Assembly: GCF_000025925.1 (NCBI RefSeq)
Contig: NC_014033.1
Coordinates: forward strand, 390,001 to 422,000
Reading direction: 5' to 3'
Source of the DNA: Xylanibacter ruminicola 23
GTDB taxonomy: Bacteria > Bacteroidota > Bacteroidia > Bacteroidales > Bacteroidaceae
Length of the DNA: 32,000 nucleotides
The notes under the pieces were generated by a model. That model searched no databases. It was not told the origin of the DNA and saw nothing but the letters and a program-made list of their open reading frames with translations. Every line of letters begins with the position of its first letter. The stretch's first letter is position 1. Below are positions 5,348 through 30,397 of the stretch, one piece after another. The position numbers and the translations under genes are program-made.

Positions 5348-5385
5348 TGTTAGATATTTCCCTTTTCGTGTACTAATACTATAGA
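5348..5385 (+). promoter_or_regulatory. Island promoter-like motif m1 (TGTTAGAT-N12-GTGT-ACTA-ATACTATAGA)
   Basis: tgttagatatttcccttttcgtgtactaatactataga, with TGTTAGAT 63 nt upstream of the ATG at 5411. A TTAAAAAC leader element follows. Confidence 0.6.
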
Positions 5386-5410
5386 ATGTTTCATTAAAAA
5401 CGTAATAATT

Positions 5411-5959
5411 ATGGCTTTATACAGTATTGAAAGCGAGCAGTGCCTCGGAATGTCCCATCACGGTGCAGTAACAGTAAACGGTGAGAGTGCAGTAGAACTC
5501 TCTGACGAGGAAGTGAACATCCTCGTCCAGCTTATCAAAGAGAAGGGAACCACCGATGTCGATGAGCTTGGCATCGCTACAACTCATCCTGATCTTTACG
5601 AGAAACTCGACGATGCTTATCGTAATATGGCCTACAAAGCTGAAGAGCTCCACTGGCTATGGGAGGGTTATCACAACGGGTACTTTGAGTATGATACCGA
5701 GGAACTGATGAACTATTGCGAGCAGGAACTTGGTTTTAGTTTTGAATCTGATGAGACAGACTGCGATTCTGATGATGTTGAAGAAGAAAAGTATGATGCC
5801 TTCTATGAGTGGCTCGATGACTACGTCAACGAACTGTCGGATGATGAGGCTGCATCCTTCTTCTATAATCATATGAATGCTAGTCTTGACATGGACTATG
5901 TGGAATATTCTGTTGAGATTCCTGCAGGTATAATCAAAAAATCTCAGGAGGTGTGTTAG
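5411..5959 (+). CDS. Hypothetical highly acidic protein (182 aa)
   Basis: Intact ORF behind motif m1. D/E-rich, especially ...FESDETDCDSDDVEEEKYDAFYEWLDDYVNELSDDEAASFF.... No family recognised. Confidence 0.6.
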   Translation: MALYSIESEQCLGMSHHGAVTVNGESAVELSDEEVNILVQLIKEKGTTDVDELGIATTHPDLYEKLDDAYRNMAYKAEELHWLWEGYHNGYFEYDTEELMNYCEQELGFSFESDETDCDSDDVEEEKYDAFYEWLDDYVNELSDDEAASFFYNHMNASLDMDYVEYSVEIPAGIIKKSQEVC

Positions 5960-5991
5960 AATTTCCATATCTTGTGTACTAAGTATATGAA
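5954..5991 (+). promoter_or_regulatory. Island promoter-like motif m2
   Basis: tgttagaatttccatatcttgtgtactaagtatatgaa. It overlaps the stop codon of the acidic-protein gene and lies 83 nt upstream of the rmuC ATG. A GTTGTTAAAAC leader element follows. Confidence 0.6.
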
Positions 5992-6036
5992 GGTTGTTAA
6001 AACTAAGATTATTGTTTAATTTAAATTGATATAATT

Positions 6037-7491
6037 ATGGAATTAATGATTATTGCAATTGTGAGTGTTGTTTTTGGCGTGTTAGTGGGAGTTTGGGCTA
6101 TGCAGAACCGCCAGAAGATGCTTCAGAACCAAGTAGAGAATCTTCAGTCTCAGATGCAACATGTCAAGGATGAGGCTCAAGAGAAACTGGAAACTGTCTT
6201 GGCTGAAAAGGATAAGGCCTGTGAGAACATGATTGAGGCTAAGGACAAGGCCTGCAATAACCTGATTGATGCTCAGGAGAAGCGACATCAAGAAAGTATC
6301 GCTGCCCAGGAAACGCGTCATCAGCAGACACTTGAAGCTCAGGAAAAGAGGCACAAGGAGGCTATTGCTGCGCAGGAGAAGAGACAGCAAGAAGCACTAT
6401 CAGCCCAGCAGTCACGCTTCAATGAAACTATGCAGAAAGTTACTGCACAGGTCAAATCGGCTACCGAAGATCTTCTGAAAAAGCGTCAGGAGGAGTTTGC
6501 TGCGGCGAGTAATGAGAATATTGGCCAGATTGTAAACCCACTCAAGGAGTCGCTCGACAAGATGAAACGAGCTATGGATGAGAGTACCCTTAAGCAGACA
6601 GAAATGGGGGGAGAGATGAAGTCTCAAATTTCTATCATGATGAGACAGAGTGAAGCTGCCAAGAAGAGTGCTGATGAACTTGCAAATGTCCTCAAACACC
6701 GTTCAAAGGTACAGGGTGACTGGGGTGAGACTGTTCTCGATGAATTGCTGGAGTCTCAGGGACTTACCAGAGGTGTACATTACGATGTGCAGCCCTATCT
6801 CAGAGACAAGAATGGCGACATCATTGTGTCAGACGAAGGTTCGAAGATGCGCCCAGACGTGATACTTCACTTGGATAAACAGCGCGAAGTGATTATCGAC
6901 TCAAAAGTGTCGTTGACAGCTTTTATGGACTACGCGAATGCAGAGAACGAGGAAGATAGGGATAGATTCCTGAAGGCACATGTCGATAGTATTAACAAAC
7001 ATGTGAAGGAACTGTCAACTAAAGACTACTCTTCATACATCAAGGCGCCCAAGGTTAAGATGGACTACGTCATCATGTTTGTGCCTCACACTGGTGCCCT
7101 TTGGACTGCACTGAATGCACAACCCGACCTTTGGCGAAAGGCTATGGATAAGAATGTGTTCATTGCCGATGAGCAGTCGCTGTTCGCTGCACTGCGTATC
7201 ATCAATCTTACCTGGACTCAGATCGCCCAGGCTCAGAATCAGGAGGAAGTATTCAGACTGGCTAATGAGATTCTCGACAGAGTAGGGCAGTTCATGAAAA
7301 AGTATCAGGCTATCGGCAAAGCCTTGAGTAATGCTACTGAAGCCTACAATGATGGCGAAAAGAAGCTGCAGCCCAGCGGTCAGAGCATCCTGCAGTCTTG
7401 TGGCAAGCTCATTAAGGTCGGTGCCAAGCAGAGTGTCAGGAATCCATTACCACAGCTTGCTGACGACGGAACTGATGTTTTATGTGCATAG
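6037..7491 (+). CDS. rmuC: DNA recombination protein RmuC (N-terminal TM helix, coiled coil, RmuC nuclease-like domain)
   Basis: 484 aa. N-terminal hydrophobic helix, then a long coiled coil. The C-terminal region ...RPDVILHLDKQREVIIDSKVSLTAF...DYVIMFVPHTGAL... is typical of the RmuC family (restriction-endonuclease-like fold). Confidence 0.85.
   Translation: MELMIIAIVSVVFGVLVGVWAMQNRQKMLQNQVENLQSQMQHVKDEAQEKLETVLAEKDKACENMIEAKDKACNNLIDAQEKRHQESIAAQETRHQQTLEAQEKRHKEAIAAQEKRQQEALSAQQSRFNETMQKVTAQVKSATEDLLKKRQEEFAAASNENIGQIVNPLKESLDKMKRAMDESTLKQTEMGGEMKSQISIMMRQSEAAKKSADELANVLKHRSKVQGDWGETVLDELLESQGLTRGVHYDVQPYLRDKNGDIIVSDEGSKMRPDVILHLDKQREVIIDSKVSLTAFMDYANAENEEDRDRFLKAHVDSINKHVKELSTKDYSSYIKAPKVKMDYVIMFVPHTGALWTALNAQPDLWRKAMDKNVFIADEQSLFAALRIINLTWTQIAQAQNQEEVFRLANEILDRVGQFMKKYQAIGKALSNATEAYNDGEKKLQPSGQSILQSCGKLIKVGAKQSVRNPLPQLADDGTDVLCA
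6202..6420 (+). repeat. Tandem 33-bp (11-residue) repeats inside the rmuC coiled-coil region
   Basis: AEKDKACENMIE / AKDKACNNLID / AQEKRHQESIA / AQETRHQQTLE / AQEKRHKEAIA / AQEKRQQEALS / AQQSRF. The repeats are also visible at DNA level as gctcaggagaag-type units. Confidence 0.8.
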
Positions 7492-7527
7492 CACTTTTCG
7501 CTCTGTTTCTCAATAATCAGGTCTTTC

Positions 7528-7565
7528 AAATGGGCGGATCTTCATGATTCGCTCATTTTTTTCGT
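7528..7565 (+). terminator. Terminator-like hairpin after rmuC
   Basis: aaatgggcg ... cgctcattt forms a 9-bp stem with one mismatch, followed by a T-run (tttttttcg). Confidence 0.5.
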
Positions 7566-7571
7566 CCATGA

Positions 7572-7609
7572 TGTTAGATTTGTACTTTTCTGTGTACTAA
7601 TACATATGA
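7572..7609 (+). promoter_or_regulatory. Island promoter-like motif m3
   Basis: tgttagatttgtacttttctgtgtactaatacatatga, 85 nt upstream of the ATG at 7657. A CTGTTTAAAAC leader element follows. Confidence 0.6.
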
Positions 7610-7656
7610 GAGCTGTTTAAAACGGATTTATTGTTAAATTAAAAAATATTACAATT

Positions 7657-8040
7657 ATGACAGAACTGAGAAACAATTCCGAGTGCATGACACCCAGCAT
7701 GAACGCCCCTGTGCGTAACATCCACATCATCCCTGCCGGTGACATCCCTTATGAGGTGCGAATGAAGTACATCCTCAGAGCTTATCGTAAAGACAAGGAA
7801 CGTCTCGAGCAACTTCAACGCTATGCTGAGGGGCTAGAAGAGGAAAACGTTGCCCTTCAGAAGCAGCTCGAACAGAAGAAACTGGACAAAGAGGTTTCTA
7901 CTAAGAGAAAGAAGAAAATCTTTGAATTGACGCATCTTACCCAGAGTCAGAAGGTCTATATCGGTAGTCTTCAGCTTCTTCTTGCTGAACACGGTATACC
8001 TTTCCATGAAATGAAAACATTAATAACAATAACGAAATGA
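7657..8040 (+). CDS. Hypothetical coiled-coil protein (127 aa)
   Basis: Intact ORF behind motif m3. The central segment KDKERLEQLQRYAEGLEEENVALQKQLEQKKLDKE is coiled-coil-like. An ATGA overlap couples it to the next ORF. Confidence 0.55.
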   Translation: MTELRNNSECMTPSMNAPVRNIHIIPAGDIPYEVRMKYILRAYRKDKERLEQLQRYAEGLEEENVALQKQLEQKKLDKEVSTKRKKKIFELTHLTQSQKVYIGSLQLLLAEHGIPFHEMKTLITITK

Positions 8041-8243
8041 GATTTTATAAAAAAGTTTGGGGTATTATCTGGGAGTTTAACTCCATAGGTGAGTATATTA
8101 GTTTCTGCATTGGTAGGCTCTTGGGCGCCATCATATTCTTTGTTGGCCTGTATCTACTGGTAGAGTGTAGTGGCTCCGATGCCACTACCAATCCAGAATA
8201 CGACTACGAGCCCATCCCCGCCAGTTTCTATCAGTATGACTAA
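8037..8243 (+). CDS. Small membrane protein (68 aa), paralog of ORF 5087-5329
   Basis: MRFYKKVWGIIWEF... followed by a hydrophobic helix (LLGAIIFFVGLYLLV). Start/stop overlap (ATGA at 8037-8040) with the upstream ORF. Confidence 0.45.
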   Translation: MRFYKKVWGIIWEFNSIGEYISFCIGRLLGAIIFFVGLYLLVECSGSDATTNPEYDYEPIPASFYQYD

Positions 8244-8270
8244 GAGATGGGCCCGCCTTGTTGTGGTATT

Positions 8271-8840
8271 CTATTCGAATGAGATTCTTCCGCTGCCTAT
8301 TTCACTATATGCTTTTGCTGAGAGACTGCCGATGTGGAGCTTTCCGGCTGCTACACGTTCGCCATTATCCCTGATAAAGTCTTCGTTGGTGCCGATGAGA
8401 TAGGCAACTTCTTCTTCAGCAGGCTTATATAGGAAACAATCCTGATTGAATATTTCCGAAAGCTTATACAGGTTCTCGTAAAAGTCCGGATCATTGTTCC
8501 GGTCGAATACCAGAAAACTATTTTCCTTGCTCACATCTTGACCTACTTCAGCATAAAAACCTTGGAGCTTGATAATTCCATAACCCATGGCACGAAGCGC
8601 TTCCTGGAGTTTGCGGTTATTCGCATCATTTTCTGCACGTTTATTGCCAGACCTCCACGCAGTGATGTTGGCACAATCGGTTTTGTTTATCCAATACACT
8701 GCCCGATTAAGCGATGCATTTACAGGAAGAACACTCAGGTCTATTTCTTCTGCCTGAGGAGTGGGGGCTTTTGCAACAGCCTGTTCTTCTACGAGATCTT
8801 CAATCTCAAAAACTGGTAATAATACTTCAATTTTTTTCAT
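8271..8840 (-). CDS. Hypothetical protein (189 aa), last gene of the lower Ntn-pair operon
   Basis: Intact ORF starting 12 nt downstream of the Ntn gene stop codon. No family recognised. Confidence 0.6.
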   Translation of the reverse strand: MKKIEVLLPVFEIEDLVEEQAVAKAPTPQAEEIDLSVLPVNASLNRAVYWINKTDCANITAWRSGNKRAENDANNRKLQEALRAMGYGIIKLQGFYAEVGQDVSKENSFLVFDRNNDPDFYENLYKLSEIFNQDCFLYKPAEEEVAYLIGTNEDFIRDNGERVAAGKLHIGSLSAKAYSEIGSGRISFE

Positions 8841-8852
8841 GCTTTTTCGAAT

Positions 8853-9815
8853 TCAAATACCAAATTTACCATATTGTCCGCCTTTCGATGGTTCATACCA
8901 ACTTTTTCGGTTGAGCCATTGAAAACCATCTTCGCGAGTAATGACTGCGAGGTCGACAAGACCACCTACAGATTCTTGTCTGGAAGTTATTTTTCGATGT
9001 AATTCTGTGGCCTTAATCAGATTCTCTGCTAGGCAGGCCATTTTCTGGAGATCAAATTCTTTTATGGCTTCCAGGTGTTGGCGCAAATGCTCACGTCCAC
9101 TTTCTTTAATAATGTCCGTTACCTCTTGACGAATAGCGGGATAGTTTATCTTGCTTTTTAGGGAATCAAGCATGTTCTCATTTAGCAGATTATCAATGAG
9201 ATCTTGGAATTTTCTGCGGATAACACTAACACGGTCATCTTGTATGCCCAATTCTATGGCATCGATAATGTCGGATTGGCCACTCGTGAAAATATTGCTT
9301 TCTTGCTCATCTGATATGCTAGCACATCCGCAAGATTGCCATTGTAGTTTCGATTTGGATATTCCGATAACCTTATACTGGCAGATACTAGGGTAGGACT
9401 CTTCTTGACCATATCCAGCAAATACCAGATGTGTTATTTCTGCTTCTTCGAATGAATACTCCTTATTTATATACTTTGGTATTATTTCTGATTCTATAAA
9501 CTCTTTGAAATTATTAATATAGTCTTGAAATGTGGGAAAACCAGAACTATCATTCTGCTTGCGATACCACCTGATGATGACATCCCATGGAAGTTTTGTC
9601 AATAAAGCGTTGCCAACAATCATAACAGCAACAGGCTGTTTATCTTTTAATCGTAGCATTTTATCGCCAGAATTAACAACCTTGTCTTTGATTGAAATCA
9701 CTTTTTCATTCTTATTCTGAATGGTGACTTCCTGAATTGCATTGGTAAACGTCACAGCACTGTCGGCTGCGATGGCAATGCCTCTCTTATTTAAAATACC
9801 TACTATCGCTGTCAT
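8853..9815 (-). CDS. Proteasome beta/HslV-like N-terminal-nucleophile (Thr1) hydrolase, predicted active subunit (pair 1)
   Basis: The N-terminus MTAIVGILNKRGIAIAADSAVT places Thr at position 1 after Met removal and Asp at position 17. A conserved Lys lies in NSGDKMLRL, followed by VAVMIVG. A mid-protein VFAGYGQEESYP resembles the proteasome AGxD..gP.LY segment. The C-terminus ESVGGLVDLAVITREDGFQWL closes the match. It is clearly paralogous to ORF 19840-21165. Confidence 0.6.
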   Translation of the reverse strand: MTAIVGILNKRGIAIAADSAVTFTNAIQEVTIQNKNEKVISIKDKVVNSGDKMLRLKDKQPVAVMIVGNALLTKLPWDVIIRWYRKQNDSSGFPTFQDYINNFKEFIESEIIPKYINKEYSFEEAEITHLVFAGYGQEESYPSICQYKVIGISKSKLQWQSCGCASISDEQESNIFTSGQSDIIDAIELGIQDDRVSVIRRKFQDLIDNLLNENMLDSLKSKINYPAIRQEVTDIIKESGREHLRQHLEAIKEFDLQKMACLAENLIKATELHRKITSRQESVGGLVDLAVITREDGFQWLNRKSWYEPSKGGQYGKFGI

Positions 9816-9830
9816 ATTTACTCCTTTCCT

Positions 9831-10616
9831 TTAAGCACCATAGAGACTATGTTTGATATATACGAAACCTTCTGCAAGGGTTACTATTCCAATCTCGCGT
9901 GTAGGAGAAATGATAGAATCATTTGAACCAAGCAGACCTTCTGTCTCAATAAGATTCTCCGCCATTGACACCATGTCTTTAATGGTGAAATCAGAGACAA
10001 CTTGAGTTACTTTTGCGTCTTCCTGTATTTCCGTGAACATCTTTGCAATACTGTTTCTATCTCCTTCAATTAGGCCTGCGGCGGCATCCTTGTTGCCCAT
10101 TATATTGCCTAGAGTCTTATGTAACAAACTGCCCATTTTGTTTATAATATCTTCAGACACTCCTCCAGACAAAATACGGATATTCTCACAATTGCCTAGA
10201 TTTATTTGAAATACTGGTTTTCTTAAGCTTATTTCGTATTCATTTTTAAAGATGTTGAAGCCTTTTTCATTAGCAGAGATGTTAATAACTCCTGCACGAG
10301 GAAAAATGTCCTTAGGTTCGTAACCTACGCACACGATTATTTTATTGTTTTCCTTAGCCATGGTGTCTTTATCTACATGACTAAACGCTTCTTTAAGATA
10401 GTAGTAGAAGTCTTTTACGCTTTCATCGAAAGTGTTTTCTTGTGTAAGGCTTTTCTTGGCCTGATAGGCCATGATGATGTCGTCCCACCTTAGTCCAGAA
10501 GTCGGATCAACCATAATCGCAAAAGGTATTTTTTCGCTGTAGCGAAAAATGGTGTGGTCGCGACTGGATGCGCATACTGCACCATGCATGTTCATCATTA
10601 AAATTGCTGCTGCCAT
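9831..10616 (-). CDS. Proteasome-like Ntn-fold paralog, catalytically degenerate subunit (pair 1)
   Basis: 261 aa with the same layout as the downstream gene (AILMMNMHGAVCASS..., ...WDDIIMAYQAKK, IVCVGYEPKDIFP, ...IGIVTLAEGFVYIKH). The Thr1 and Asp17 equivalents are Ala and Ser in a hand alignment. Confidence 0.5.
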   Translation of the reverse strand: MAAAILMMNMHGAVCASSRDHTIFRYSEKIPFAIMVDPTSGLRWDDIIMAYQAKKSLTQENTFDESVKDFYYYLKEAFSHVDKDTMAKENNKIIVCVGYEPKDIFPRAGVINISANEKGFNIFKNEYEISLRKPVFQINLGNCENIRILSGGVSEDIINKMGSLLHKTLGNIMGNKDAAAGLIEGDRNSIAKMFTEIQEDAKVTQVVSDFTIKDMVSMAENLIETEGLLGSNDSIISPTREIGIVTLAEGFVYIKHSLYGA

Positions 10617-10632
10617 ATTGCTTCAGATTTTT

Positions 10633-10660
10633 TTGTTACTTCTGATTGCAAAAGTAACAA
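10633..10660 (-). promoter_or_regulatory. Hairpin (9-bp stem) embedding a canonical -7 box (TACTTTTG) upstream of the Ntn pair 1 genes
   Basis: ttgttactt / aagtaacaa inverted repeat. The complement of 10649-10656 reads TACTTTTG (TAnnTTTG), about 33 nt upstream of the ATG at 10616. The hairpin could also terminate the upstream sigma gene. Confidence 0.45.
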
Positions 10661-10709
10661 AAATACCTGAAACAACAAAACAGAAAAGAGAAAAAGTACG
10701 TTCTTATAT

Positions 10710-11441
10710 TTACGCCGCCTTTGCGTAGGCCTTCTGCAGTTGGTGCAGAATAGCCTTCTCGCGAAGGTCGGCAATGATGGCCTTCATTCTCCTGATGGGC
10801 AGCCCGTACTTCTTGGCAAGGTCGGAAACGGAATACCCGTCATACACCATCTGTGCCAAGTCCATCATCAGGTTTACATCGCTGGGATAGTACCACTTAC
10901 TTAGGAAAGAGCGCAGCCCCTCCTTGGTTTCCTCAAAGTCGCGAAGCATTTCACTGCTCAATGGTGCAGCGGGTATGCGGTCTATAAGGTCGCGGCTCCA
11001 GTTGTCATCATCTGTATCGTGACAGTCGTCAAGCGACAGACAGGCCTGAAGCCCCAGAAGGAGATTGGGGGTCTTGACGGAACATGTCCAGGTCCTGATG
11101 GCCTCGCTGATGGCTCTGCGGATGTGGTGTACCGCATATGAGCAGAAGTGATTATCGAATGAAGGGTTGTAGCGTGCAGCTGCTATGGTCAGACCGTAGT
11201 TGCCAGCTGCGATGAGTTCCTCGATGGGTACGAAGGGAGTGGCCATGTCGATGGCGCAGGTGAGTACAAAGCGCAGGTTGGCTTCGATGAGCTTGTTGCG
11301 AGCAGTGGTGTCGCCTGCCATGATGCGGCGGCCCAGTTCCTGCTCTTCTTCCATAGTGAGAGGCTGATTGTTCTCGATTTGCTCAAGGTAGACGTTGAAA
11401 CCTTCGGCATGATTCTCAAGGAGGTGATGCATTTTACTCAT
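10710..11441 (-). CDS. Sigma-70 family RNA polymerase sigma factor-like protein (243 aa)
   Basis: Region 1.2/2-like: ...PLTMEEEQELGRRIMAGDTTARNKLIEANLRFVLTCAIDMA...ELIAAGNYGLTIAAARYNPSFDNHFCSYAVHHIRRAISEAI. Region 4-like HTH: GYSVSDLAKKYGLPIRRMKAIIADLREKA. Confidence 0.7.
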   Translation of the reverse strand: MSKMHHLLENHAEGFNVYLEQIENNQPLTMEEEQELGRRIMAGDTTARNKLIEANLRFVLTCAIDMATPFVPIEELIAAGNYGLTIAAARYNPSFDNHFCSYAVHHIRRAISEAIRTWTCSVKTPNLLLGLQACLSLDDCHDTDDDNWSRDLIDRIPAAPLSSEMLRDFEETKEGLRSFLSKWYYPSDVNLMMDLAQMVYDGYSVSDLAKKYGLPIRRMKAIIADLREKAILHQLQKAYAKAA

Positions 11442-11466
11442 AATTCTACAGTTTTAATGATTACTA

Positions 11467-11504
11467 TCTATAGTATACAGACACCAAAACCCCGAAATCT
11501 AACA
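11467..11504 (-). promoter_or_regulatory. Island promoter-like motif m7 (upstream of the sigma-70-like gene)
   Basis: The minus-strand sequence reads tgttagatttcggggttttggtgtctgtatactataga. TGTTAGAT is exactly 63 nt upstream of the ATG, as in m1 and m6. GTGT at +20 and ATACTATAGA at +28 are identical to m1. A CATTAAAAC leader element follows. Confidence 0.55.
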
Positions 11505-11516
11505 AAGATCTCGGGG
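11486..11516 (-). terminator. Terminator-like hairpin after the peptidase-RyR gene, overlapping motif m7
   Basis: The minus-strand sense reads ccccgagatc-tttgtta-gatttcgggg (10-bp stem with one mismatch) followed by TTTT. It lies 31 nt downstream of the stop codon at 11548. Confidence 0.5.
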
Positions 11517-11547
11517 AAATATGCTTAAAAGATGTTAATACTGCAGA

Positions 11548-12564
11548 TTATTTATCTTTTGTGATTCTATACCCTAGACGCTGCACAAGTTCGAGAGTGC
11601 CTCGTGCCATAATACGATCGTATTTCTTTTCACTTTCAGTTAGATCGCTGTAGGGAACAAGGTCAGGGTGTTTCTTATGTTTGTCATCGCGTACGTCACC
11701 ATATGTCCACTTATCTTCTATTCTGGCTTTTGCCCAAATGTCATGAGCATTTTCGGCTATGGCTTCCATTAGCTCCTCTAGATCTCCTTCAAGTTTAAAA
11801 CTACTTGCATCAATGGGAGATGGATTGTATTTCCGAACACCTCGCTTTGTTACAGATATAATATAATAATGTGAATCCTGCCATGCAAACATAAAGTTAG
11901 TAGTAGGATGAGTTTCTTCCTGGGCATGCTGTGGGTCGTAGATACGTACCTGTTTGTCGTTGGCAGATAGAACCACTACGGCATGATTAGGTATATTCCG
12001 TTCCGTATTGTTGCTATATAGTTTGTCGGCATTTACAACTGCTATGATTTTACATCCATCATTTAACTCTTTGTTAATGAGATCGTATTCGCAATCGTAG
12101 CGGCGTACTACCGAGAGACGATAAAATTCTGACAGTAGTCTACCGATATGGTGTAGTGGGGTGCCACCAACCTTAAGCCAACCTTTTCCTCGTGATTGTT
12201 CTGTAAGTGATTCTACCGTAGTTTTTATGCCGAATTGTTGTAATAAGTAATGTTCACAACGAACCACGCAATCGTTAGGAGCTTTCATGTCGTGACCATA
12301 CTCTCTGCTTTTGGCCGCCAGCCTGTACATAGGGAGATATGTTGCCGTCATCGAAATGACATTTGCAGGCGATACCTTTTGGGTTCGCTCTTTACTGATG
12401 TGTATATCTGCCAACTTGTTTGATATTGACATCATGATTTCTATTTCTTCCTTTAGGTCGGGATTTTGCTCCGCCGCTAGGAGTATCATTTCGGTTTCTT
12501 CGCCGGTTGCTTTTCCTGCATAAAACCGCGACATCAGTTCGTTTGTTATTCTTTGCTTAGCCAT
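11548..12564 (-). CDS. Fusion protein: anti-sigma-like N-terminal segment + papain-like (C39-like) cysteine peptidase domain + C-terminal RyR domain
   Basis: The start is taken at Met30 of the track ORF (ATG 12562-12564), which gives an 8-nt overlap with the upstream gene rather than 95 nt. N-terminus: MAKQRITNELMSRFYAGKATGEETEMILLAAEQNPDLKEE, the pattern of an anti-sigma N-terminal helix pair. Middle: Cys/His pair in NDCVVRCEHYLL ... IPNHAVVVL ... IYDPQ. C-terminus: AIAENAHDIWAKARIEDKWTYGDVRDDKHKKHPDLVPYSDLTESEKKYDR, matching the RyR (PF02026-type) consensus. Confidence 0.55.
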   Translation of the reverse strand: MAKQRITNELMSRFYAGKATGEETEMILLAAEQNPDLKEEIEIMMSISNKLADIHISKERTQKVSPANVISMTATYLPMYRLAAKSREYGHDMKAPNDCVVRCEHYLLQQFGIKTTVESLTEQSRGKGWLKVGGTPLHHIGRLLSEFYRLSVVRRYDCEYDLINKELNDGCKIIAVVNADKLYSNNTERNIPNHAVVVLSANDKQVRIYDPQHAQEETHPTTNFMFAWQDSHYYIISVTKRGVRKYNPSPIDASSFKLEGDLEELMEAIAENAHDIWAKARIEDKWTYGDVRDDKHKKHPDLVPYSDLTESEKKYDRIMARGTLELVQRLGYRITKDK

Positions 12565-13246
12565 ATATAATCTTTTTTCCGATTTTGAAAAAGAGTTTGG
12601 TGAATGCCTCATTAGCCCTCTTCCTGTCTTGTGATATATTTGTGGAGTCAATGCTTAAATAAGGCATTTCATCTCCCCAGAATTTTCTTCTCATAATTTC
12701 TGCATATTTCTCATTGTCCATCATGTCAACAACCATTCTGATTCTTTCGTTGATATCATTTTTTATCAAATTTTGTTCAGGATTCAGTTCGGGTTTGTTG
12801 TCTGAAACTAGCGAGGGCACTTCTTTTTGAACTCCCCTTGCTATTATTTCATCATGACGTTTATTCTTTTTTCTTTCAGCACTCCTTTGTTCCTGATAAT
12901 GGGCTATGGCCTTTCTTGCTAACCAGATTATGATGCTACCACCCTCAGTTTCGTATTCGCGCAGTTTACTTTTGTCTTTAAATAGAAAGTAGAGGTTATT
13001 AAAGACTTCTGCTTTTACACTATATGCTTCTCTGTTACGAAAGATACTTTCTTGGATGATTGTAACTACTTCGTCAAATTGACCTCCATAGAAAAGCTGG
13101 TTGATGACGTTTATGTCATCATTAAGCAGCCCTTCATAAATCTCACTATCAGATAAATATTCTTTTTTCTCCTCCATGGGGGCAAAGATACGAATTATAT
13201 CTGGAATAAACAAGATTTTGGTAGAATTATTGTGTAACGTTGACAT
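12557..13246 (-). CDS. ECF-type sigma factor-like protein (alternative start at 13177)
   Basis: Region 2-like: ...VKAEVFNNLYFLFKDKSKL...GGSIIIWLARKAIAHYQEQ. Region 4-like: ...IRMVVDMMDNEKYAEIMRRKFWGDEMPYLSI...RKRANEAFTKLF. It sits directly upstream of, and overlaps, an anti-sigma-like gene. The sequence is divergent, so the call is tentative. Confidence 0.4.
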   Translation of the reverse strand: MSTLHNNSTKILFIPDIIRIFAPMEEKKEYLSDSEIYEGLLNDDINVINQLFYGGQFDEVVTIIQESIFRNREAYSVKAEVFNNLYFLFKDKSKLREYETEGGSIIIWLARKAIAHYQEQRSAERKKNKRHDEIIARGVQKEVPSLVSDNKPELNPEQNLIKNDINERIRMVVDMMDNEKYAEIMRRKFWGDEMPYLSIDSTNISQDRKRANEAFTKLFFKIGKKIIYG

Positions 13247-13255
13247 AAGTGTTGC

Positions 13256-13807
13256 TCAGTTGATGCTTTTTAGCTGGGAGTCGATGATGACTTCCAGCCC
13301 GTTGTATACAGCAGGTATGACGGTGCGGCCGCAATACTGGCGAGGGTTGCCGATGGTAAGTTCCTCGCAGCCTATCATTCTGGCAACGACCTTGCGTACA
13401 AATGCCACAGCCATACTCATCATGTGGTCGAAGTCCTTGGCTGTGTATGCTATCATGCGGTCAGGATTAGCCATGAATATAGCGCGATAGAGACGAGCGA
13501 GCTCAGGGAAATCCTTCTCTGGCTTGTTCAGACTGCGACGCTGATACCCCATGGGGTGGAGTAGGGTGTAGATATATATCAGTTTCGAGTAACGGTCCTC
13601 GAACTTGATGACCTCCTCCGTGTTGTCATCCTTCAGTACGATGACGTCGTAGATGTTAGTACCTGAGATGTCCTTGATGTCGCGATGGCGCACCTCAATA
13701 GCGACGGGTTGGGGTGCCCACTCCTTATCTGCTGCCATGTACTCTGCCAGACGCTGCTGCATTTCTTCTACACTCATTTGCTGGATTGCATCTTGAATTT
13801 TGCTCAT
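13256..13807 (-). CDS. Hypothetical protein (183 aa), first gene behind motif m6
   Basis: Intact ORF, with motif m6 exactly 63 nt upstream of its ATG. No family recognised. Confidence 0.6.
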   Translation of the reverse strand: MSKIQDAIQQMSVEEMQQRLAEYMAADKEWAPQPVAIEVRHRDIKDISGTNIYDVIVLKDDNTEEVIKFEDRYSKLIYIYTLLHPMGYQRRSLNKPEKDFPELARLYRAIFMANPDRMIAYTAKDFDHMMSMAVAFVRKVVARMIGCEELTIGNPRQYCGRTVIPAVYNGLEVIIDSQLKSIN

Positions 13808-13832
13808 AATCTTACTGTTTTTAAGTTCAACT

Positions 13833-13870
13833 TCTATATACTTAGTACAGCAAGAGTGAATTTTCTAACA
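13833..13870 (-). promoter_or_regulatory. Island promoter-like motif m6
   Basis: The minus-strand sequence reads tgttagaaaattcactcttgctgtactaagtatataga, followed by the leader element AACTTAAAAAC. Confidence 0.6.
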
Positions 13871-17314: not shown

Positions 17315-17319
17315 TTCCT

Positions 17320-21165: not shown

Positions 21166-21176
21166 AATTGTCAAAA

Positions 21177-22327: not shown

Positions 22328-22344
22328 AATACAATATCATTTGG

Positions 22345-22352
22345 CAAAATTA
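22345..22352 (-). promoter_or_regulatory. Canonical -7 box (TAATTTTG on minus strand) for the RyR-Ntn-TPR operon
   Basis: The complement of caaaatta matches TAnnTTTG, about 18 nt upstream of the ATG at 22327. Confidence 0.45.
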
Positions 22353-22434
22353 AACATTTGTGCTGAAATATACAAGCAAAATTGCATTTATTTGTTTTTC
22401 TTATATCTATAAGTTCGATAAAAAGCAATGGTTC

Positions 22435-22500
22435 CTTCCTGTACATGTGAATAATTGAATAGTTGAATATTTTTTATCAAATCCTTGGAAGTTTGATGAG
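22435..22500 (+). repeat. Repeat family A copy 3 (core plus hairpin-like tail)
   Basis: cttcctgtacatgtgaataattgaatagttgaatat, then atcaaatccttggaagtttgat. Both the core and the tail are homologous to copy 4. Confidence 0.8.
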
Positions 22501-22507
22501 AAACACC

Positions 22508-22515
22508 TATCTTTG
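22508..22515 (+). promoter_or_regulatory. Canonical -7 box (TATCTTTG) for the Nudix gene
   Basis: Matches TAnnTTTG, 47 nt upstream of the ATG at 22562. Confidence 0.45.
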
Positions 22516-22561
22516 CGGCACAAATGATAAATAGCATTTCAATAACTATAATGTAAAGCAA

Positions 22562-26086: not shown

Positions 26087-26128
26087 AGGTCTTAGATATT
26101 AATGTAGAGTATAATACTTATTTTCCTG

Positions 26129-26136
26129 CAAATATA
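26129..26136 (-). promoter_or_regulatory. Canonical -7 box (TATATTTG on minus strand) for the kinase-HAD operon
   Basis: The complement of caaatata matches TAnnTTTG, about 43 nt upstream of the ATG at 26086. Confidence 0.45.
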
Positions 26137-26186
26137 TGCAATTCCTGTCTTTTTCCAAAGGAAAATCAAAAAAAGTTGCTATAATG

Positions 26187-26224
26187 TGTTAGATATTTCC
26201 TTTTTCGTGTACTATTATTATATA
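26187..26224 (+). promoter_or_regulatory. Island promoter-like motif m4
   Basis: tgttagatatttcctttttcgtgtactattattatata, 67 nt upstream of the ATG at 26254. It is preceded by CAAAAAAAGTTGCT, which is also present upstream of m5. Confidence 0.6.
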
Positions 26225-26253
26225 CGAATTATTTATCTAAACCCGTTTTATAT

Positions 26254-26802
26254 ATGGCAAATCTATTAGCAATCAGCATTCCTGTTAAGCGCGATCCTTC
26301 CTGGTCCGACTGGGCCAAGCGCACTCGTGCTAGTATCAAGGCTGCAGGTGTTCCTGTCAGCAGGTGGCAATTGTTGTTTTACCACATGACTATCCTATTC
26401 ATCGACGAAGACGCCTGTGTCGCCGACCTCACACCCGGCTTCGCTCAGGTCTTGAAATCATGTCCTGCCATACCGTTTATTGTCAATAAACTCGATGCCT
26501 TCACCACCACTAATGGTGCCGAACACATCATCTGTCTGTTGTCTACTCAGGTGCCACAGCAGATCCACAACCTTGCCAGCGACTCAAGGACGATGGCCGA
26601 CGGCCTCAATGCCAAATACGATCATCGTCCATTCATCCCCCATATCACCTTTGGACATGTGCCAGCCGACAAAATCTCGCTCCAGGAGTTGCGCACCATT
26701 CTTGAGGCTCTGCCACAGCCCTCATTCCATTGCCTTCTCAACGAGGCCGAACATCGCTATCGCCGCGGCAACGGCACCATCAAGAAATGGCGCCTCCGCT
26801 GA
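26254..26802 (+). CDS. 2H phosphoesterase superfamily protein (LigT/cyclic phosphodiesterase-like)
   Basis: Two HxT motifs at the expected spacing (YHMTILF and PHITFGH). 182 aa, the typical size for LigT-like proteins. Confidence 0.65.
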   Translation: MANLLAISIPVKRDPSWSDWAKRTRASIKAAGVPVSRWQLLFYHMTILFIDEDACVADLTPGFAQVLKSCPAIPFIVNKLDAFTTTNGAEHIICLLSTQVPQQIHNLASDSRTMADGLNAKYDHRPFIPHITFGHVPADKISLQELRTILEALPQPSFHCLLNEAEHRYRRGNGTIKKWRLR

Positions 26803-26816
26803 TAGTGCACTTTTTC

Positions 26817-26842
26817 CTCTCAAATACTTGCAAGTTTGAGAG
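26817..26842 (+). terminator. Terminator-like hairpin after the 2H phosphoesterase gene
   Basis: ctctcaaa-tacttgcaag-tttgagag, an 8-bp perfect stem 15 nt after the stop codon. No strong T-tract follows. Confidence 0.45.
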
Positions 26843-26850
26843 AAAATGTT

Positions 26851-26858
26851 TATCTTTG
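26851..26858 (+). promoter_or_regulatory. Canonical -7 box (TATCTTTG) for the PARG-NADAR-sigma-409aa operon
   Basis: Matches TAnnTTTG, 34 nt upstream of the ATG at 26892. Confidence 0.5.
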
Positions 26859-26891
26859 CAATATCAATAATAACTAAAAACAATTGTAATT

Positions 26892-27698
26892 ATGAATAAG
26901 TCGGATTATAGAAAGATTAACCGTGAAGTGATGACCGACACTAAACTCCAGTATGAAACAATACCAGAGTTGAAGGAGGCCGTGGAGAACTCGATTGAGC
27001 GACAGTATATGGTATCCCAAGAGGATAACATTGACCAACCAGTAGTCGACAGCAGCCATACCAAGTATCTCTGCTCTGGCAAGAGAAGCTTTGAGGCAGC
27101 TAAGGATTACAAGGGCAAGAAGGTTGCTGTGCTGAATTTCGCTAACAACCACACGATTGGAGGTGCACCATTCTCTGCAGGTGCCCAAGAGGAGTCGCTC
27201 TGCAGATGCTCTACATTGCTACCTTGCCTTGAAGCCATGAGCGAACCCTTCTACCAGAAGCATATTCGCCAATTCGAGTCAGGAGAGATTAACTATATGG
27301 GTAATGATGACTTGATCTACACCCCTGATGTGGTGGTCTTTAAAACAGATGAGCGCACTGACCCTATCTATCCTAAGATGATGGATCGAAGCGAATGGTA
27401 TAAGGTGGATGTAATTACAAGTGCAGCTCCGCAGTTGAGGAGAGTTCGCACACTCCCCGTCAACTACAATGACGTAATCTTTGGCCGCATTAAGAAGATA
27501 TTGGATGTGGCTGCCAAAGAGCATGTCGAAGTGCTGATTCTGGGAGCATGGGGCTGTGGAGCCTTCAAGAATGATGCAAAAGTAGTATCGGATACATTCT
27601 ATACATTACTGAAGAATTACAACTTCGAGGTAGTAGAATTTGCACTGTCTGACCCTGCCTACGTCACCAATTCCCCATTTAATAAGTGTAATAGTTAA
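26892..27698 (+). CDS. Bacterial-type poly(ADP-ribose) glycohydrolase-like macrodomain protein (TIGR02452/DUF2263 family)
   Basis: Family signature VAVLNFANNHTIGGAPFSAGAQEESLCRCSTL (GG-X-QEE PARG loop). C-terminal ...VLILGAWGCGAFKND. Confidence 0.8.
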   Translation: MNKSDYRKINREVMTDTKLQYETIPELKEAVENSIERQYMVSQEDNIDQPVVDSSHTKYLCSGKRSFEAAKDYKGKKVAVLNFANNHTIGGAPFSAGAQEESLCRCSTLLPCLEAMSEPFYQKHIRQFESGEINYMGNDDLIYTPDVVVFKTDERTDPIYPKMMDRSEWYKVDVITSAAPQLRRVRTLPVNYNDVIFGRIKKILDVAAKEHVEVLILGAWGCGAFKNDAKVVSDTFYTLLKNYNFEVVEFALSDPAYVTNSPFNKCNS

Positions 27699-27712
27699 TC
27701 CAAATTTCTAGT

Positions 27713-28213
27713 ATGAGAGTTACAGATAAACATATTTGTTTCTGGAATGAATGGCCCAGCAATTGGCATCCAGCCGAGTTTGATGTTGAAGTTAATGGTG
27801 TGAAATGTCATTTCTACAACACCGAACAGTACTTTATGTATATGAAGGCCATCGTGTTTGGCGATGAAGAAATTGCCAAACAGATATTGGAGGTAAGCGA
27901 CCCCAAGAAGGTAAAAGCACTTGGACGTAAGGTACAGAATTATGATGAGGCTGTATGGAACGAAAAGCGCTACCAGGTCATGCTTAAAGCCAACGTAGCA
28001 AAGTTCAGCCAGAACGAAGATCTAAAGCAATTGCTTCTCTCTCCAGAGTACGAAGGACATGGATTCGTAGAGGCCTCGCCTTATGATAAAGTCTGGGGTG
28101 TGCGAATGTTTGAGAGTAATCCCGACATTGATGACGAAACCAAATGGAAGGGACTCAACCTCCTGGGTAAAGTCCTCGACGAAACCCGCCGAATTGTAAG
28201 CCTATTAAAATAG
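27713..28213 (+). CDS. NADAR (DUF1768/YbiA-like) family protein
   Basis: FWNEWPSNWHPAEF...YNTEQYFMYMKA...ALGRKVQNYDEAVWNEKRYQVMLKANVAKFSQNEDLKQLLL...FVEASPYDKVWGV matches the NADAR family pattern. Confidence 0.85.
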   Translation: MRVTDKHICFWNEWPSNWHPAEFDVEVNGVKCHFYNTEQYFMYMKAIVFGDEEIAKQILEVSDPKKVKALGRKVQNYDEAVWNEKRYQVMLKANVAKFSQNEDLKQLLLSPEYEGHGFVEASPYDKVWGVRMFESNPDIDDETKWKGLNLLGKVLDETRRIVSLLK

Positions 28214-28220
28214 TATTAAG

Positions 28221-28937
28221 ATGTTTAAATCTGTTTCAAAGAATTATACCCCTGATTTCCTAGAGAGTTTCATGGCTAGGATTAGGGGAGTTAAAGCCCT
28301 TGACGAAGAACAAGAGGTTTATTTGGCTCAAAGGATCAAAGCTGGCGATACTAAGGCCGAAGAGCAAATGATTAAATCAAATCTGAAATTGGTTGTTTCA
28401 ATTGCCAACTCCTACCGCCCGATGATGTCTATGGAAGACTTGATTCAGAACGGCAATATCGGATTAATCAAGGCTGTTCGCGAATTTAATCCGGAACTCG
28501 GCTATCGTTTTGTCTTCTATGCCTCCATGATGATACGCAAATATATCATCATGGGCATTAGAAATGACTCCGGAATTGTCCATAGCTCTGATTATGAACA
28601 GGCTTTTATTTCGTCGGAATCTTTGGACGTGCCGGGTTCTGGCGGCTATAAAGATACATCCAAGGCCGATATGTTAGTAGGAGATATGGATGTGGAGTCT
28701 GATCTCGATAGTCTGTCCGCCGATTTGAAAAGAGCAATGTGCTCAGTTTTATCCCCCTGTGCGGTTGATATCGTGTGTAAGGTGATGGGCCTAGGTTGTA
28801 CTCCGATGTATACAGAAAGTATTGGAAAGGAACTGAACATGCCAAAGTCGCGTGTTCGTAAGATTTATCAAGAATCAATTGGAATTCTTCAGAACAATGA
28901 AAGAGTGAAAAAATTGCTTTCCTGCTATCAGCGTTAA
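28221..28937 (+). CDS. Sigma-70 family RNA polymerase sigma factor-like protein (238 aa)
   Basis: LDEEQEVYLAQRIKAGDTKAEEQMIKSNLKLVVSIANSYR...LIQNGNIGLIKAVREFNPELGYRFVFYASMMIRKYIIMGI (regions 1.2-2). C-terminal HTH-like IGKELNMPKSRVRKIYQESI. Same architecture as ORF 10710-11441, but the sequence is divergent. Confidence 0.7.
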   Translation: MFKSVSKNYTPDFLESFMARIRGVKALDEEQEVYLAQRIKAGDTKAEEQMIKSNLKLVVSIANSYRPMMSMEDLIQNGNIGLIKAVREFNPELGYRFVFYASMMIRKYIIMGIRNDSGIVHSSDYEQAFISSESLDVPGSGGYKDTSKADMLVGDMDVESDLDSLSADLKRAMCSVLSPCAVDIVCKVMGLGCTPMYTESIGKELNMPKSRVRKIYQESIGILQNNERVKKLLSCYQR

Positions 28938-28975
28938 GCTACTAACAAAGTGTAACAATCTAATAAGAGTATATT

Positions 28976-30205
28976 ATGAGAAAACTGTGTTTTGATGAAG
29001 ATAAGTTGAATGAGTATTATTCTAACCATTTTGTTAGTGATCTGGAAGACTATTTTAGTATTCCCAATGATACGAATGAGATCAAGTATGTGGGTAAACC
29101 CCATTGGCCTTCCAGGATATTCTATCATTCCTCTGCCGAAGACCAGATGATGTTCATCGCCCTGACATCATATATGTTGGCAGCTGAGGAAGTCCTCATG
29201 CGCATAATCCCCAGTTCCCCGAACTATGAATTCTATGAGTGCCTGAATTTGTTTGGATATCCGATTGCGCCTATCGCAAAAGCCCGATACGGCCTTGAGA
29301 GTATGCTCGAACATTGTGAAATCAGTCAGAAATTCTGGTGCTTCGATGAGGTTGCTGCTTTGAGAGATGCTATGAAGGTTGTAGAACCCTTTATGAACGA
29401 AAGGTTCCAGCACCATATGAAGACATGGAACAACGGCTACTTCGCTGAGTATATAACCGATGACATCCCGGCCAAGATTCATCGTGTTATTACCGAAGGT
29501 CTTCAAATGCTCTATAGCAAACATTATACTTATCAGGGACTGACAGGAACAGTTCTGACTCACCGCGACTTTGCTGACTACTTCCCAAACCGCTTTTTTG
29601 AGCAGTTTAGGAAGTACTTTAGCTGTGCCACTGATAATGGCAACCATCTCGAGGTGCTGTATGTGTATGATCATGGTAATGAGCGGTGGGCTGATGAGAT
29701 GCCTGGGCAGACAGCGAAGGAAAACCTGCTCTTCGCCAGCATCATGCTCTATCAGGTGATTGCTGAGCAGAGTATTCTCGACGTCGCCCCTAAGGCTAGT
29801 AACGATTTCCACAAAGCATTCGGATGGCCTATGATCAGTTCCGGTCCAGGTGGTGGTCCTTATCTCCACCCATTGAAGATGCTGGAGTATGCCGGTCTGT
29901 CGCCCATGAAATATGAGGCACCTTTGCTCCTTGAGTATGTCAAGAAGGTGTTCTACTATCTTCGTCAGGAGATGAATACCATCCTCAATCGCAGAGATTC
30001 TGTCATCAAGGACAAGGAAGCTGCCAGTCGTTTCTTTGAACAGTGTGATGGTCATGCGAGGTCCAGAATCCGTAAATACTTAGACCGCCAGGAGAAGAGT
30101 ATTCAGGAGTTACTTGTCAAATGGACCACTTCGCCCGAAGACTGCTGGTACAAGATGCTTGAGAGCGAAGGCATACCCCTTATGATGCCTATAAAGGATT
30201 CATAA
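28976..30205 (+). CDS. Hypothetical protein (409 aa) with an internal two-fold duplication
   Basis: AEDQMMFIALTSYMLAAEEVLMRIIPSSPNYEFYECLNLFGYPI... parallels AKENLLFASIMLYQVIAEQSILDVAPKASNDFHKAFGWPMI.... It lies 38 nt downstream of the sigma-like gene. No family recognised. Confidence 0.6.
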   Translation: MRKLCFDEDKLNEYYSNHFVSDLEDYFSIPNDTNEIKYVGKPHWPSRIFYHSSAEDQMMFIALTSYMLAAEEVLMRIIPSSPNYEFYECLNLFGYPIAPIAKARYGLESMLEHCEISQKFWCFDEVAALRDAMKVVEPFMNERFQHHMKTWNNGYFAEYITDDIPAKIHRVITEGLQMLYSKHYTYQGLTGTVLTHRDFADYFPNRFFEQFRKYFSCATDNGNHLEVLYVYDHGNERWADEMPGQTAKENLLFASIMLYQVIAEQSILDVAPKASNDFHKAFGWPMISSGPGGGPYLHPLKMLEYAGLSPMKYEAPLLLEYVKKVFYYLRQEMNTILNRRDSVIKDKEAASRFFEQCDGHARSRIRKYLDRQEKSIQELLVKWTTSPEDCWYKMLESEGIPLMMPIKDS

Positions 30206-30237
30206 TCAGATTTCTACAGCATGAGGTGTAATACCCC

Positions 30238-30302
30238 CTTCCTGTACATGTGAATTAATGAATGTAGAATAATTCCCCTCAAATCCATGGTGGTTTGAGG
30301 GG
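30238..30302 (+). repeat. Repeat family A copy 4 (core plus 9-bp-stem hairpin 30275-30302 that may terminate the preceding operon)
   Basis: cttcctgtacatgtgaattaatgaatgtagaataatt, then cccctcaaa-tccatggtgg-tttgagggg, followed by aaatttctgtttt. Confidence 0.8.
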
Positions 30303-30359
30303 AAATTTCTGTTTTGTACATGCTCTCCAATAAAAAACTCAAAAAAAGTTGCTCATATA

Positions 30360-30397
30360 TGTTAGATATTCCATTTCTCGTGTGCTATATATATGAA
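30360..30397 (+). promoter_or_regulatory. Island promoter-like motif m5
   Basis: tgttagatattccatttctcgtgtgctatatatatgaa, 94 nt upstream of the ATG at 30454. It is preceded by CAAAAAAAGTTGCT, as in m4. Confidence 0.6.

Follow-up and report, generated by a model that had tools for sequence, protein, structure and literature searches.

In a 32,000-nt stretch of the genome of Xylanibacter ruminicola 23 (contig NC_014033.1, positions 390,001 to 422,000; hereafter the window, in whose numbering all coordinates are given), a short bipartite sequence that we call motif A stands before genes of a defence/conflict island that encodes two sigma-70 family proteins, here named sigma1 and sigma2. At least nine genes of this Prevotellaceae anti-phage island are led by the motif, and on balance we believe that motif A serves as the promoter for a regulon private to the island and is probably read by a sigma factor of the sigma1/sigma2 family. 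The motif itself, its fixed geometry, its position and orientation before genes, its exclusivity with the housekeeping box TAnnTTTG and its co-occurrence with the sigma family were observed directly. We regard this observation as well supported and the mechanism proposed for it as moderately supported.

Motif A is defined by the pattern TGTTAGAW-N12-STGT, in which STGT is (G/C)TGT, and was matched on both strands of the window, with the chance level taken from 100 dinucleotide-preserving shuffles. There were seven matches against 0.77 expected, none of the 100 shuffles reaching seven, and the seven copies claimed in an earlier reading of this DNA made from the letters alone (the sequence-only reading) are therefore borne out: five start on the plus strand, at 5348, 5954, 7572, 26187 and 30360, and two on the minus strand, at 11504 and 13870. 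The heptamer TGTTAGA is found nowhere else in the 32 kb on either strand, and although 88% of the window is coding, all seven copies precede a start codon and point at it. The sequence-only reading had described every copy as intergenic and gene-facing; the orientation and upstream position stand, but the copy at 5954 overlaps the TAG stop codon of the preceding open reading frame (ORF). Its invariant 20-nt spacing from TGTTAGA to GTGT agrees with our finding that TGT occupies motif positions 21-23 in all seven copies (the one at 13870 reads CTGT), and three copies do lie exactly 63 nt from their ATG (5348 to 5411, 11504 to 11441 and 13870 to 13807). The upstream sequence that it reported for two copies was seen as CAAAAAAAGTTGCT at 26167 and 30340, ahead of copies 26187 and 30360, and its list of genes behind the motif, including those for RmuC, a sigma-70 family protein, a 2H/LigT protein and a GmrSD_N protein, proved correct. 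Two further claims held in part: five leaders do carry a TTAAAAC element and then (A/G)ATTAT, in the form TTAAAA(A)C and as an approximate rather than an exact match, and the ACTA of its pattern is not kept between genomes.

Related loci, designated by L numbers, were fetched via relatives of sigma1 and sigma2 and examined up to 10 kb to either side. The copies of motif A in the window, with their scores by position weight matrix (PWM) or their counterparts in related loci where these apply, are as follows.

Copy 1, 5348..5385, plus strand: 63 nt before the ATG of an acidic 182-aa protein (5411-5959; pI 4.05); PWM score 47.7 bits.
Copy 2, 5954..5991, plus strand: 83 nt before rmuC (6037-7491); kept at the RmuC ortholog of L001.
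Copy 3, 7572..7609, plus strand: 85 nt before a basic 127-aa protein (7657-8040); kept at the L001 ortholog (17498).
Copy 4, 11467..11504, minus strand: 63 nt before sigma2; likewise in L113, L118, L120, L121, L122 and L124.
Copy 5, 13833..13870, minus strand: 63 nt before a 183-aa gene, the first of an operon of 183-aa, 229-aa and C39-RyR genes; likewise in L113, L118 and L124 (62-63 nt).
Copy 6, 26187..26224, plus strand: 67 nt before a 2H/LigT phosphoesterase (26254-26802); A-tract and GTTGCT at 26167-26180.
Copy 7, 30360..30397, plus strand: 94 nt before a GmrSD-like gene (30454 onwards) that matches GmrSD_N; A-tract and GTTGCT at 30340-30353.

Two extra copies lie just past the right end of the window, at 32310 and 34362 (L031:14090 and L031:16142), and lead a 246-aa gene and a 320-aa gene.

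The primary sigma factor of the Bacteroidetes, sigma ABfr, uses promoters with TTTG at -33 and TAnnTTTG at -7 (PMC7366714). Such TAnnTTTG boxes precede other units of the island, namely the kinase gene, the Nudix gene, the PARG-NADAR-sigma1 operon, the RyR-led unit and 9831-10616, whereas a pattern scan found no TAnnTTTG between motif A and the ATG in any of the seven copies, the sole match to the expression at a motif-led gene being TAGATTTG, within the motif at 7572. The claim that the motif differs from the Bacteroidetes housekeeping promoter is upheld by this division between the two sets of genes, and a sigma ABfr promoter was ruled out as the identity of motif A. A scan for E. coli-type promoters marked one copy only (26190-26218), its model not being informative for this phylum.

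A sigma-54 promoter, sought by its signature, in which GG at -24 and GC at -12 are separated by 10 nt (TGGCAC-N5-TTGC), was ruled out for the window copies as well, GG-N10-GC being present in none of the nine copies of the window genome. The same GG-N10-GC does occur in two divergent relatives, L110 and L003. In the divergent contigs L003 (about 9940-9990), L042, L110, L111, L112 and L047, a sigma1-like gene of 45-56% identity is preceded by a sigma-54-type promoter, TTTGGCA(T/C)-N5-TTTGCA, and in L003, L042 and L110 the gene before the sigma1-like gene is preceded by TGTTAGATTTGGCAC-N5-(A/G)TGC(A/C)CC, a sequence in which TGTTAGA runs into a sigma-54-like core. Motif A can be aligned with this TGTTAGATTTGGCAC-containing element column for column but is without its GG and GC. 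A phage nature was considered for contig L003 but is not supported, its PHROGs matches being confined to the sigma.

Across all loci we listed 31 copies of motif A and one CGTTAGA variant, from at least nine independent contexts, all of which are Prevotellaceae-type conflict islands or contigs encoding a relative of sigma1 or sigma2. Every copy with an assigned gene faces its ATG, at a distance of 59-94 nt (142-147 nt in two divergent contigs). Identities to the window proteins and numbers of copies are given here by locus.

L001: sigma1, 84% identity; three copies, before RmuC, a 319-aa gene and a 94-aa gene.
L045 and L046, contigs of 1.0-1.3 kb: truncated sigma1 relative, about 55% identity; one or two copies, one of them upstream of the sigma gene.
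L113: sigma2, 78% identity; two copies.
L118: sigma2, 70% identity; three copies.
L121: sigma2-like, 36% identity; one copy.
L122: sigma2-like, 42% identity; four copies.
L124: sigma2, 75% identity; four copies, and CGTTAGA before sigma2.

The three motif-led genes of L001 have motif-led orthologs in the window genome, the gene order being different and the intergenic flanks diverged, and the motif is kept despite diverged flanks before orthologs of RmuC, the 320-aa gene, the 127/94-aa gene, the 183-aa gene and sigma2. The consensus over the listed copies reads aaAaaa-n-tgc-N7-TGTTAGAttT..c..TtTT.gTGtaCtaa...taT..aa. Its information peaks at TGTTAGA, W-W-T (positions 7-9), the T-run (15-18), TG (21-22) and C25, and falls into two blocks, positions 0-9 and 15-25, as in a bipartite promoter of fixed spacing. 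The gap of 14 nt from TGTTAGA to TG is near-invariant, being 1 nt longer in two copies of a single locus, L113, where the distance to the ATG is shifted by at most 2 nt; this fits a promoter, since promoter spacers tolerate such a change. An upstream A-tract is common among the copies, and an AT-rich stretch with a GA(G/A)A box lies downstream. The variable sub-blocks are uniform within a genome and differ between genomes (GTGTACTA in the window, GTGTCCCT in L001, CGCACCCT in L045), suggesting that the motif sites coevolve with a factor acting in trans. Sub-block covariation shows no partition by sigma1 and sigma2, so the direct reader is not separable by this means.

These patterns bear on a further possibility, that motif A is spreading as a cassette of promoter and leader, or is a repeat at recombination or cassette boundaries, its copies resembling one another through recent duplication or gene conversion rather than through a dedicated regulator. 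The islands are mosaic and genes travel with the motif, some copies share at least 65 nt including the leader, the sub-blocks are homogenised within a genome, and copies 5954 and 13870 form an inverted pair. Conservation is nevertheless position-specific with variable spacers rather than block-wise, the motif persists across genomes in which orthologous proteins are 59-83% identical and the flanks have diverged, the window yielded neither a recombinase nor an integrase, and all copies face genes at the 59-94 nt given above. We consider an origin of this kind quite improbable.

The truncated sigma1 relative of the rumen-type contigs L045 (39-524) and L046 (37-447) has regions 1.2-2 only and is 136 aa long from the MGLKM methionine in both, the L045 ORF reaching 161 aa from an upstream GTG. 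One copy of motif A precedes it and another stands before a 62-aa ORF; the gene could be a pseudogene or encode a split sigma.

Several results link motif A with the sigma family. At a PWM threshold of 18 bits or more there were 16 matches in 143 kb of sigma1/sigma2 loci, several of them from outside the set used to build the matrix, whereas 446 kb of loci that hold other sigma-70 genes gave none. Clustering of all ORFs identified sigma1/sigma2 as the only protein family common to all seven larger motif-bearing loci, and even the contigs of 1.0-1.3 kb with a truncated sigma1 relative still hold a copy or two. Wherever a sigma2 locus was examined, motif A stood before the sigma2 gene, that is, in the window and the loci listed under copy 4 (as CGTTAGA in L124), and five loci (L113, L118, L121, L122 and L124) carry motif A and sigma2 with no sigma1 within 10 kb on either side. 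The sequence-only reading had proposed a dedicated regulon of an island-encoded sigma; the promoter-like class and the co-travel with sigma genes across independent genomes agree with this, and which sigma reads the motif we infer.

Searches in wider collections gave no sign of the motif elsewhere above chance level. The strict form was matched 27 times in 185,579 species genomes, a collection that does not contain the source genome, as scattered single matches in unrelated phyla where about 35 would be expected by chance on our own estimate; there were no clustered matches and none in Prevotella. Two motif scans of viral contigs gave four and two single matches, which is chance level. Abundance throughout the genome had been named at the outset as the sign of a generic repeat, and with the strict scan at chance level motif A does not appear to be one. 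These counts also speak to the view that a host alternative sigma, such as a Bacteroidetes extracytoplasmic function (ECF) sigma, reads motif A in a regulon extending beyond the island, with the island sigmas acting elsewhere. The TGTTAGA-N14-TGTAC geometry does resemble that of ECF promoters, and our census covers part of the source genome. Few alternative-sigma motifs are known in Bacteroides (PMC7366714). We nevertheless think a host sigma unlikely as the reader, given the lack of clustered or Prevotella matches among the species genomes and of any PWM match in the control loci, the fact that every motif-bearing locus was fetched via a sigma1 or sigma2 relative, and the place of the motif before sigma2 itself, as is usual where an alternative sigma regulates its own gene.

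Three genes of the window had been called sigma-like by the sequence-only reading.

sigma1, 28221..28937, plus strand: sigma-70 family, with regions 1.2, 2 and 4 and without region 3; third gene of a PARG-NADAR-sigma1-409aa operon.
sigma2, 10710..11441, minus strand: sigma-70 family paralog of sigma1, 33-36% identical over regions 1.2-2, also without region 3.
229-aa protein, 12557..13246, minus strand: "ECF-like" candidate whose sigma nature is weakly indicated.

For sigma1 and sigma2 this description stands, with Pfam regions 1.2 (PF00140) and 2 in both and TIGR02937 scores of 80.5 and 51.1 bits, respectively, against a cut-off of 42.9, the match running into region 4. Aligned with Bacteroidetes RpoD, both have lost about 40 aa of region 3, and the melting residues WW of region 2.3 are MM in sigma1 and HH in sigma2; the region 4 sequences of the two are dissimilar. 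The sigma1 family comprises 19 clusters of 45-98% identity among 5.8 billion proteins, RpoD coming next at about 30%, and the sigma2 family is larger, with roughly 70 clusters in Prevotellaceae. As judged by these comparisons, sigma1 and sigma2 are derived from the Bacteroidetes primary sigma A. They fall outside the ECF sigmas (group 4), for region 3 is absent but region 1.2 is present and their nearest relatives are primary RpoD proteins. No relatives of sigma1 were found in viral contigs and no close one in 50,697 phage records, where the best matches were at most about 31% identical over most of the protein (26% in Lak phages). The sole PADLOC match for both sigmas was MzaA (NF041931), at 95.3 and 41.5 bits versus a cut-off of 800, and this identity was ruled out, the alignment covering region 2 only and scoring far below the cut-off.

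For the third gene a sigma identity is weakly supported. The 229-aa protein has no Pfam, NCBIfam, PADLOC or PDB sequence match, hhalign against the sigma1 family profile gave a probability of 1.6%, and its AlphaFold2 model is poor, with a predicted local distance difference test (pLDDT) score of 51; the top Foldseek matches of this model are mostly ECF sigmas, all at a non-significant E of 0.12 or more.

The domain structure of sigma1 and sigma2 is in keeping with the geometry of the motif. Without region 3, the link between domains 2 and 4 would be short and rigid, so a fixed spacer would be expected, and the loss of region 3 together with the change of WW leads us to expect an altered promoter specificity and ECF-like spacing. 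ECF-type promoters have the same 14-nt layout (sigmaE, GGAACTT-N14-TGTCAAA), and the sigmas that read them have no domains other than 2 and 4. In the mechanism that we propose, RNA polymerase carrying an island sigma of the sigma1/sigma2 family would read motif A, with TGTTAGA(W)(W)T serving as a -35-type element and the T-run with (G)TG(T/C)N-C, at motif positions 15-25, as a -10-type element, while an UP-like role is possible for the A-tract and GTTGC found 7-19 nt upstream. The predicted start of transcription is at about motif positions 34-42, inside or just past the TATA(G/T)GA(G/A) box, two possible registers placing it at about position 35 or about position 41, and for the copies 63 nt from the ATG this predicts an AT-rich leader of about 20-30 nt. 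We infer the reading sigma, the -35/-10 assignment and the start site from the sequence patterns described above, and likewise the existence of an inducing signal.

Several points weigh against this assignment. TGTTAGA is invariant in sigma1-only and sigma2-only loci although region 4 differs between the two proteins, which is hard to square with a reading of it by region 4 of both. Co-occurrence was judged within the 10 kb on either side, so a second sigma or another factor may lie further out; the 446 kb of control loci were not taxonomically matched; and the census covers the fetched loci rather than the whole source genome, so that there may be further copies beyond the island and, with them, a host regulon. 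The candidate -10 element is without a conserved A at the equivalent of -11 in some genomes (CCCT), and there is an alternative register, with TAnnAT at positions 28-34 and a Bacteroidetes-like spacer of 21-22 nt. Both the binding of a sigma to motif A and the start of transcription are predictions.

The invariance of TGTTAGA would be explained by a common third factor, and motif A might accordingly be the site of a transcription factor other than a sigma, either an activator of the class II or MotA type or a repressor, encoded by the island or the host and working with a host sigma. The fusion of TGTTAGA to a sigma-54-type core in the divergent contigs, as if it were a separable upstream module, is in favour of such a factor, and functionally unassigned island proteins exist (the basic 127-aa, the 183-aa and the 409-aa proteins). 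No candidate is, however, common to all motif-bearing loci except the sigma family, and no Pfam or NCBIfam match of helix-turn-helix type was obtained among the island ORFs besides the sigmas. The motif-led genes also lack the -7 box that host sigma A would need, and an asymmetric bipartite motif with a rigid spacer at promoter distance is better explained as a promoter than as an operator. We regard a non-sigma factor as an unlikely explanation, and a sigma of the island as the probable reader.

An action at the level of RNA was also considered. Rfam 15 gave no match in the window at gathering score and RNAalifold found no conserved pairs across 12 motif copies, and on these grounds an RNA element was ruled out as the identity of motif A. 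The broader suggestion of a structured leader or riboswitch, or of a target of RNA-guided transcription of the dCas12f-sigmaE type, can point to leaders that carry the conserved TTAAAA(A)C and ATTAT and are strongly conserved between orthologs, to the existence of RNA-guided transcription by an ECF sigma in Bacteroidetes (PMC13472631), and to an uncharacterised 409-aa gene after sigma1. We find it highly improbable: apart from the missing fold and family match, every plausible start site is downstream of the invariant part of the motif, the conserved letters form short blocks and not a contiguous target of guide length, and no Cas12f/TnpB-type domain was detected in the island ORFs. The 409-aa protein itself has no family or PDB sequence match, its single-sequence model was unusable (pLDDT 33), and its gene is not next to sigma1 in L001.

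If island sigmas read motif A, the next matter is how the sigma genes are themselves controlled, and their upstream regions hold the following conserved features.

Inverted repeat CCCCGAGATCT-N5-AGATTTCGGGG, 11490..11516, minus strand: overlaps TGTTAGA of the sigma2 promoter; kept in L113, L118, L121, L122 and L124.
Housekeeping-type promoter of the sigma1 operon, 26820..26865, plus strand: palindrome TCAAATACTTGCAAGTTTGA, with its central TTG 20 nt upstream of TATCTTTG.

The inverted repeat CCCCGAGATCT-N5-AGATTTCGGGG is specific to the sigma2 promoter copy, the other motif copies being without it, and is a candidate for an operator of the sigma2 gene alone. The location of the motif before sigma2 within a conserved inverted repeat suggests that sigma2 regulates its own gene and that a further operator is involved. 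In L001, too, the palindrome and box of the sigma1 operon stand upstream of sigma1. The palindrome, as TCAAATCCTTGGNGGTTTGA, occurs in the window at 22477-22496, 26820-26839 and 30279-30298 and in L001 at 8819, 9937, 18290 and 18571, and is often extended to CCCCTCAAA...TTTGAGGGG. The TTG at its centre is 20 nt before TAnnTTTG in the Nudix and PARG-NADAR-sigma1 promoters of the window and in the sigma1, Nudix and TIR promoters of L001, and TCAAATCCTTGGNGGTTTGA is probably a repressor site or operator over the -33 element. The copy at 30279 scores also as an intrinsic terminator. A third repeat, CTTCCTGTACATGTGAATAAATGAATA, has four copies (4972-5010, 5306-5344, 22435-22473 and 30238-30276), three of which lie directly upstream of a motif A copy or a palindrome; among the fetched loci it is found in this genome only.

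In the proposed scheme the sigma1 gene would thus be transcribed from a promoter of housekeeping type, over which lies a conserved palindrome, probably an operator, and sigma2, always behind a motif copy, would be either self-amplifying or turned on by sigma1. The sequence-only reading had put forward a possible cascade, in which the sigma at 28221 (sigma1) acts through the motif on sigma2. We see this as possible but do not favour it, since the motif is present in the five sigma2-only loci, always before sigma2, which makes the order from sigma1 to sigma2 uncertain; from the arrangement of these loci, autoregulation of sigma2 appears at least as likely as a cascade driven by sigma1.

The genes of the region are those of a defence/conflict island, encoding a PD-T4-6/mad6-like kinase, GmrSD, RmuC, PARG, NADAR, Nudix, 2H and RyR-domain proteins and giant TPR proteins. 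A TIR-Macro gene of the same island, just beyond the window, has no motif copy upstream. One conserved arrangement is a module of seven genes.

Seven-gene module, 8271..13807, minus strand: 183 aa / 229 aa / C39-RyR / sigma2 / 261 aa / 320 aa / SAM-lyase-like.

Its genes have the same order in L118, L121 and L124, and largely so in L113 and L122. Variants of the module in Prevotellaceae contigs have members of about 200-230 aa, about 265 aa and about 320 aa, with TPR, NACHT and TIR genes as neighbours; the protein of about 320 aa has a weak proteasome/Ntn-like match and the RyR member is C39-peptidase-like. The PARG-NADAR-(Nudix)-sigma1 genes are kept as a tight operon (26892-28937 in the window; 1-2427 in L041, with Nudix), which ties the sigma gene to ADP-ribose-processing enzymes. 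At the left edge of the island, a perfect 84-nt direct repeat (3297-3380 and 4820-4903) flanks an AAA_14/DUF4143 ATPase gene (3451-4719, minus strand), and looks like a duplication made by insertion. Two adjacent giant TPR proteins (13955-19818, minus strand), of 1119 and 832 aa and 54% identical over 858 aa, are built of 126-nt (42-aa) tandem units, the second with a weak sub-threshold DUF4062 match at its N-terminus.

Taking promoters, sigmas and gene content together, we tentatively suggest that Prevotellaceae conflict islands carry an inducible immune regulon with sigma A-derived sigmas, a self-amplifying switch and a private promoter code. An operator-controlled promoter may make sigma1 together with PARG, NADAR and sometimes Nudix, after which motif A would direct expression of sigma2 and of RmuC, GmrSD, 2H and other effectors. 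By losing region 3 and exchanging WW for MM or HH, the two sigmas may have converged independently on a two-domain design like that of ECF sigmas, and it is possible that the third, ECF-like protein and its C39-RyR protease-like partner join the switch.

There is current interest in how anti-phage islands are turned on, as many of their effectors kill the host cell, and few dedicated regulators of defence are known (DdvS/DdvA, CapH/CapP and CapK/CapS). Should our interpretation be correct, the promoter code would define from sequence the co-induced gene set of Prevotella islands, including many genes of unknown function, and would document a lineage derived from a primary sigma by loss of region 3, which is informative on sigma evolution. 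It would also offer a candidate orthogonal sigma/promoter pair for the Bacteroidota, where very few alternative-sigma motifs are known (PMC7366714). The results are thus relevant to the fields of phage defence and of Bacteroidota transcription.

Compared with known systems, motif A shares its design with the promoters of ECF (group 4) sigmas, such as GGAACTT-N16-TCAAA of E. coli sigmaE, which are likewise bipartite with a rigid spacer, are read by sigmas of domains 2 and 4 only, and usually stand before the sigma gene itself; in contrast, sigma1 and sigma2 carry region 1.2, their nearest outside relatives are RpoD proteins at about 30%, and motif A is without the AAC or CGT cores. The relation to sigma ABfr is one of descent, and other island operons use its promoters, but motif A is without TAnnTTTG and differs from those promoters in letters and spacing. 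Small divergent sigmas that lie in an accessory locus and transcribe that locus from non-standard promoters are familiar from the TcdR/UviA/BotR/TetR group and from phages; we liken the island sigmas to these by description and not by sequence, and phage records hold no close relative of sigma1. MzaA of the MZA anti-phage system similarly has a sigma-70 region 2 domain in a defence context, but is about 700 aa long and aligns with our sigmas in region 2 alone. Literature searches returned no description of motif A or of the sigma1 and sigma2 families. ECF sigmas have been noted in conflict systems (PMC8195603), and in Myxococcus xanthus the island-encoded sigma of the DdvS/DdvA pair drives a defence island of CBASS and CRISPR-Cas via promoters P1-P4 (PMC11506125). 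The likeness to our island lies in a dedicated alternative sigma within a defence island, several island promoters and a whole immune locus forming one regulon. DdvS, however, belongs to the classical ECF sigmas and is held by an anti-sigma that spans the membrane, binds zinc and carries a TPR-CHAT domain, whereas the sigmas described here are derived from sigma A, keep region 1.2 and occur as two paralogs, with no anti-sigma identified; phylum, promoter sequence and defence gene content differ as well. The concept of a defence island under its own sigma is therefore known, and what is new here is the sigma lineage, the promoter sequence, the phylum, the gene content and the seven-gene module.

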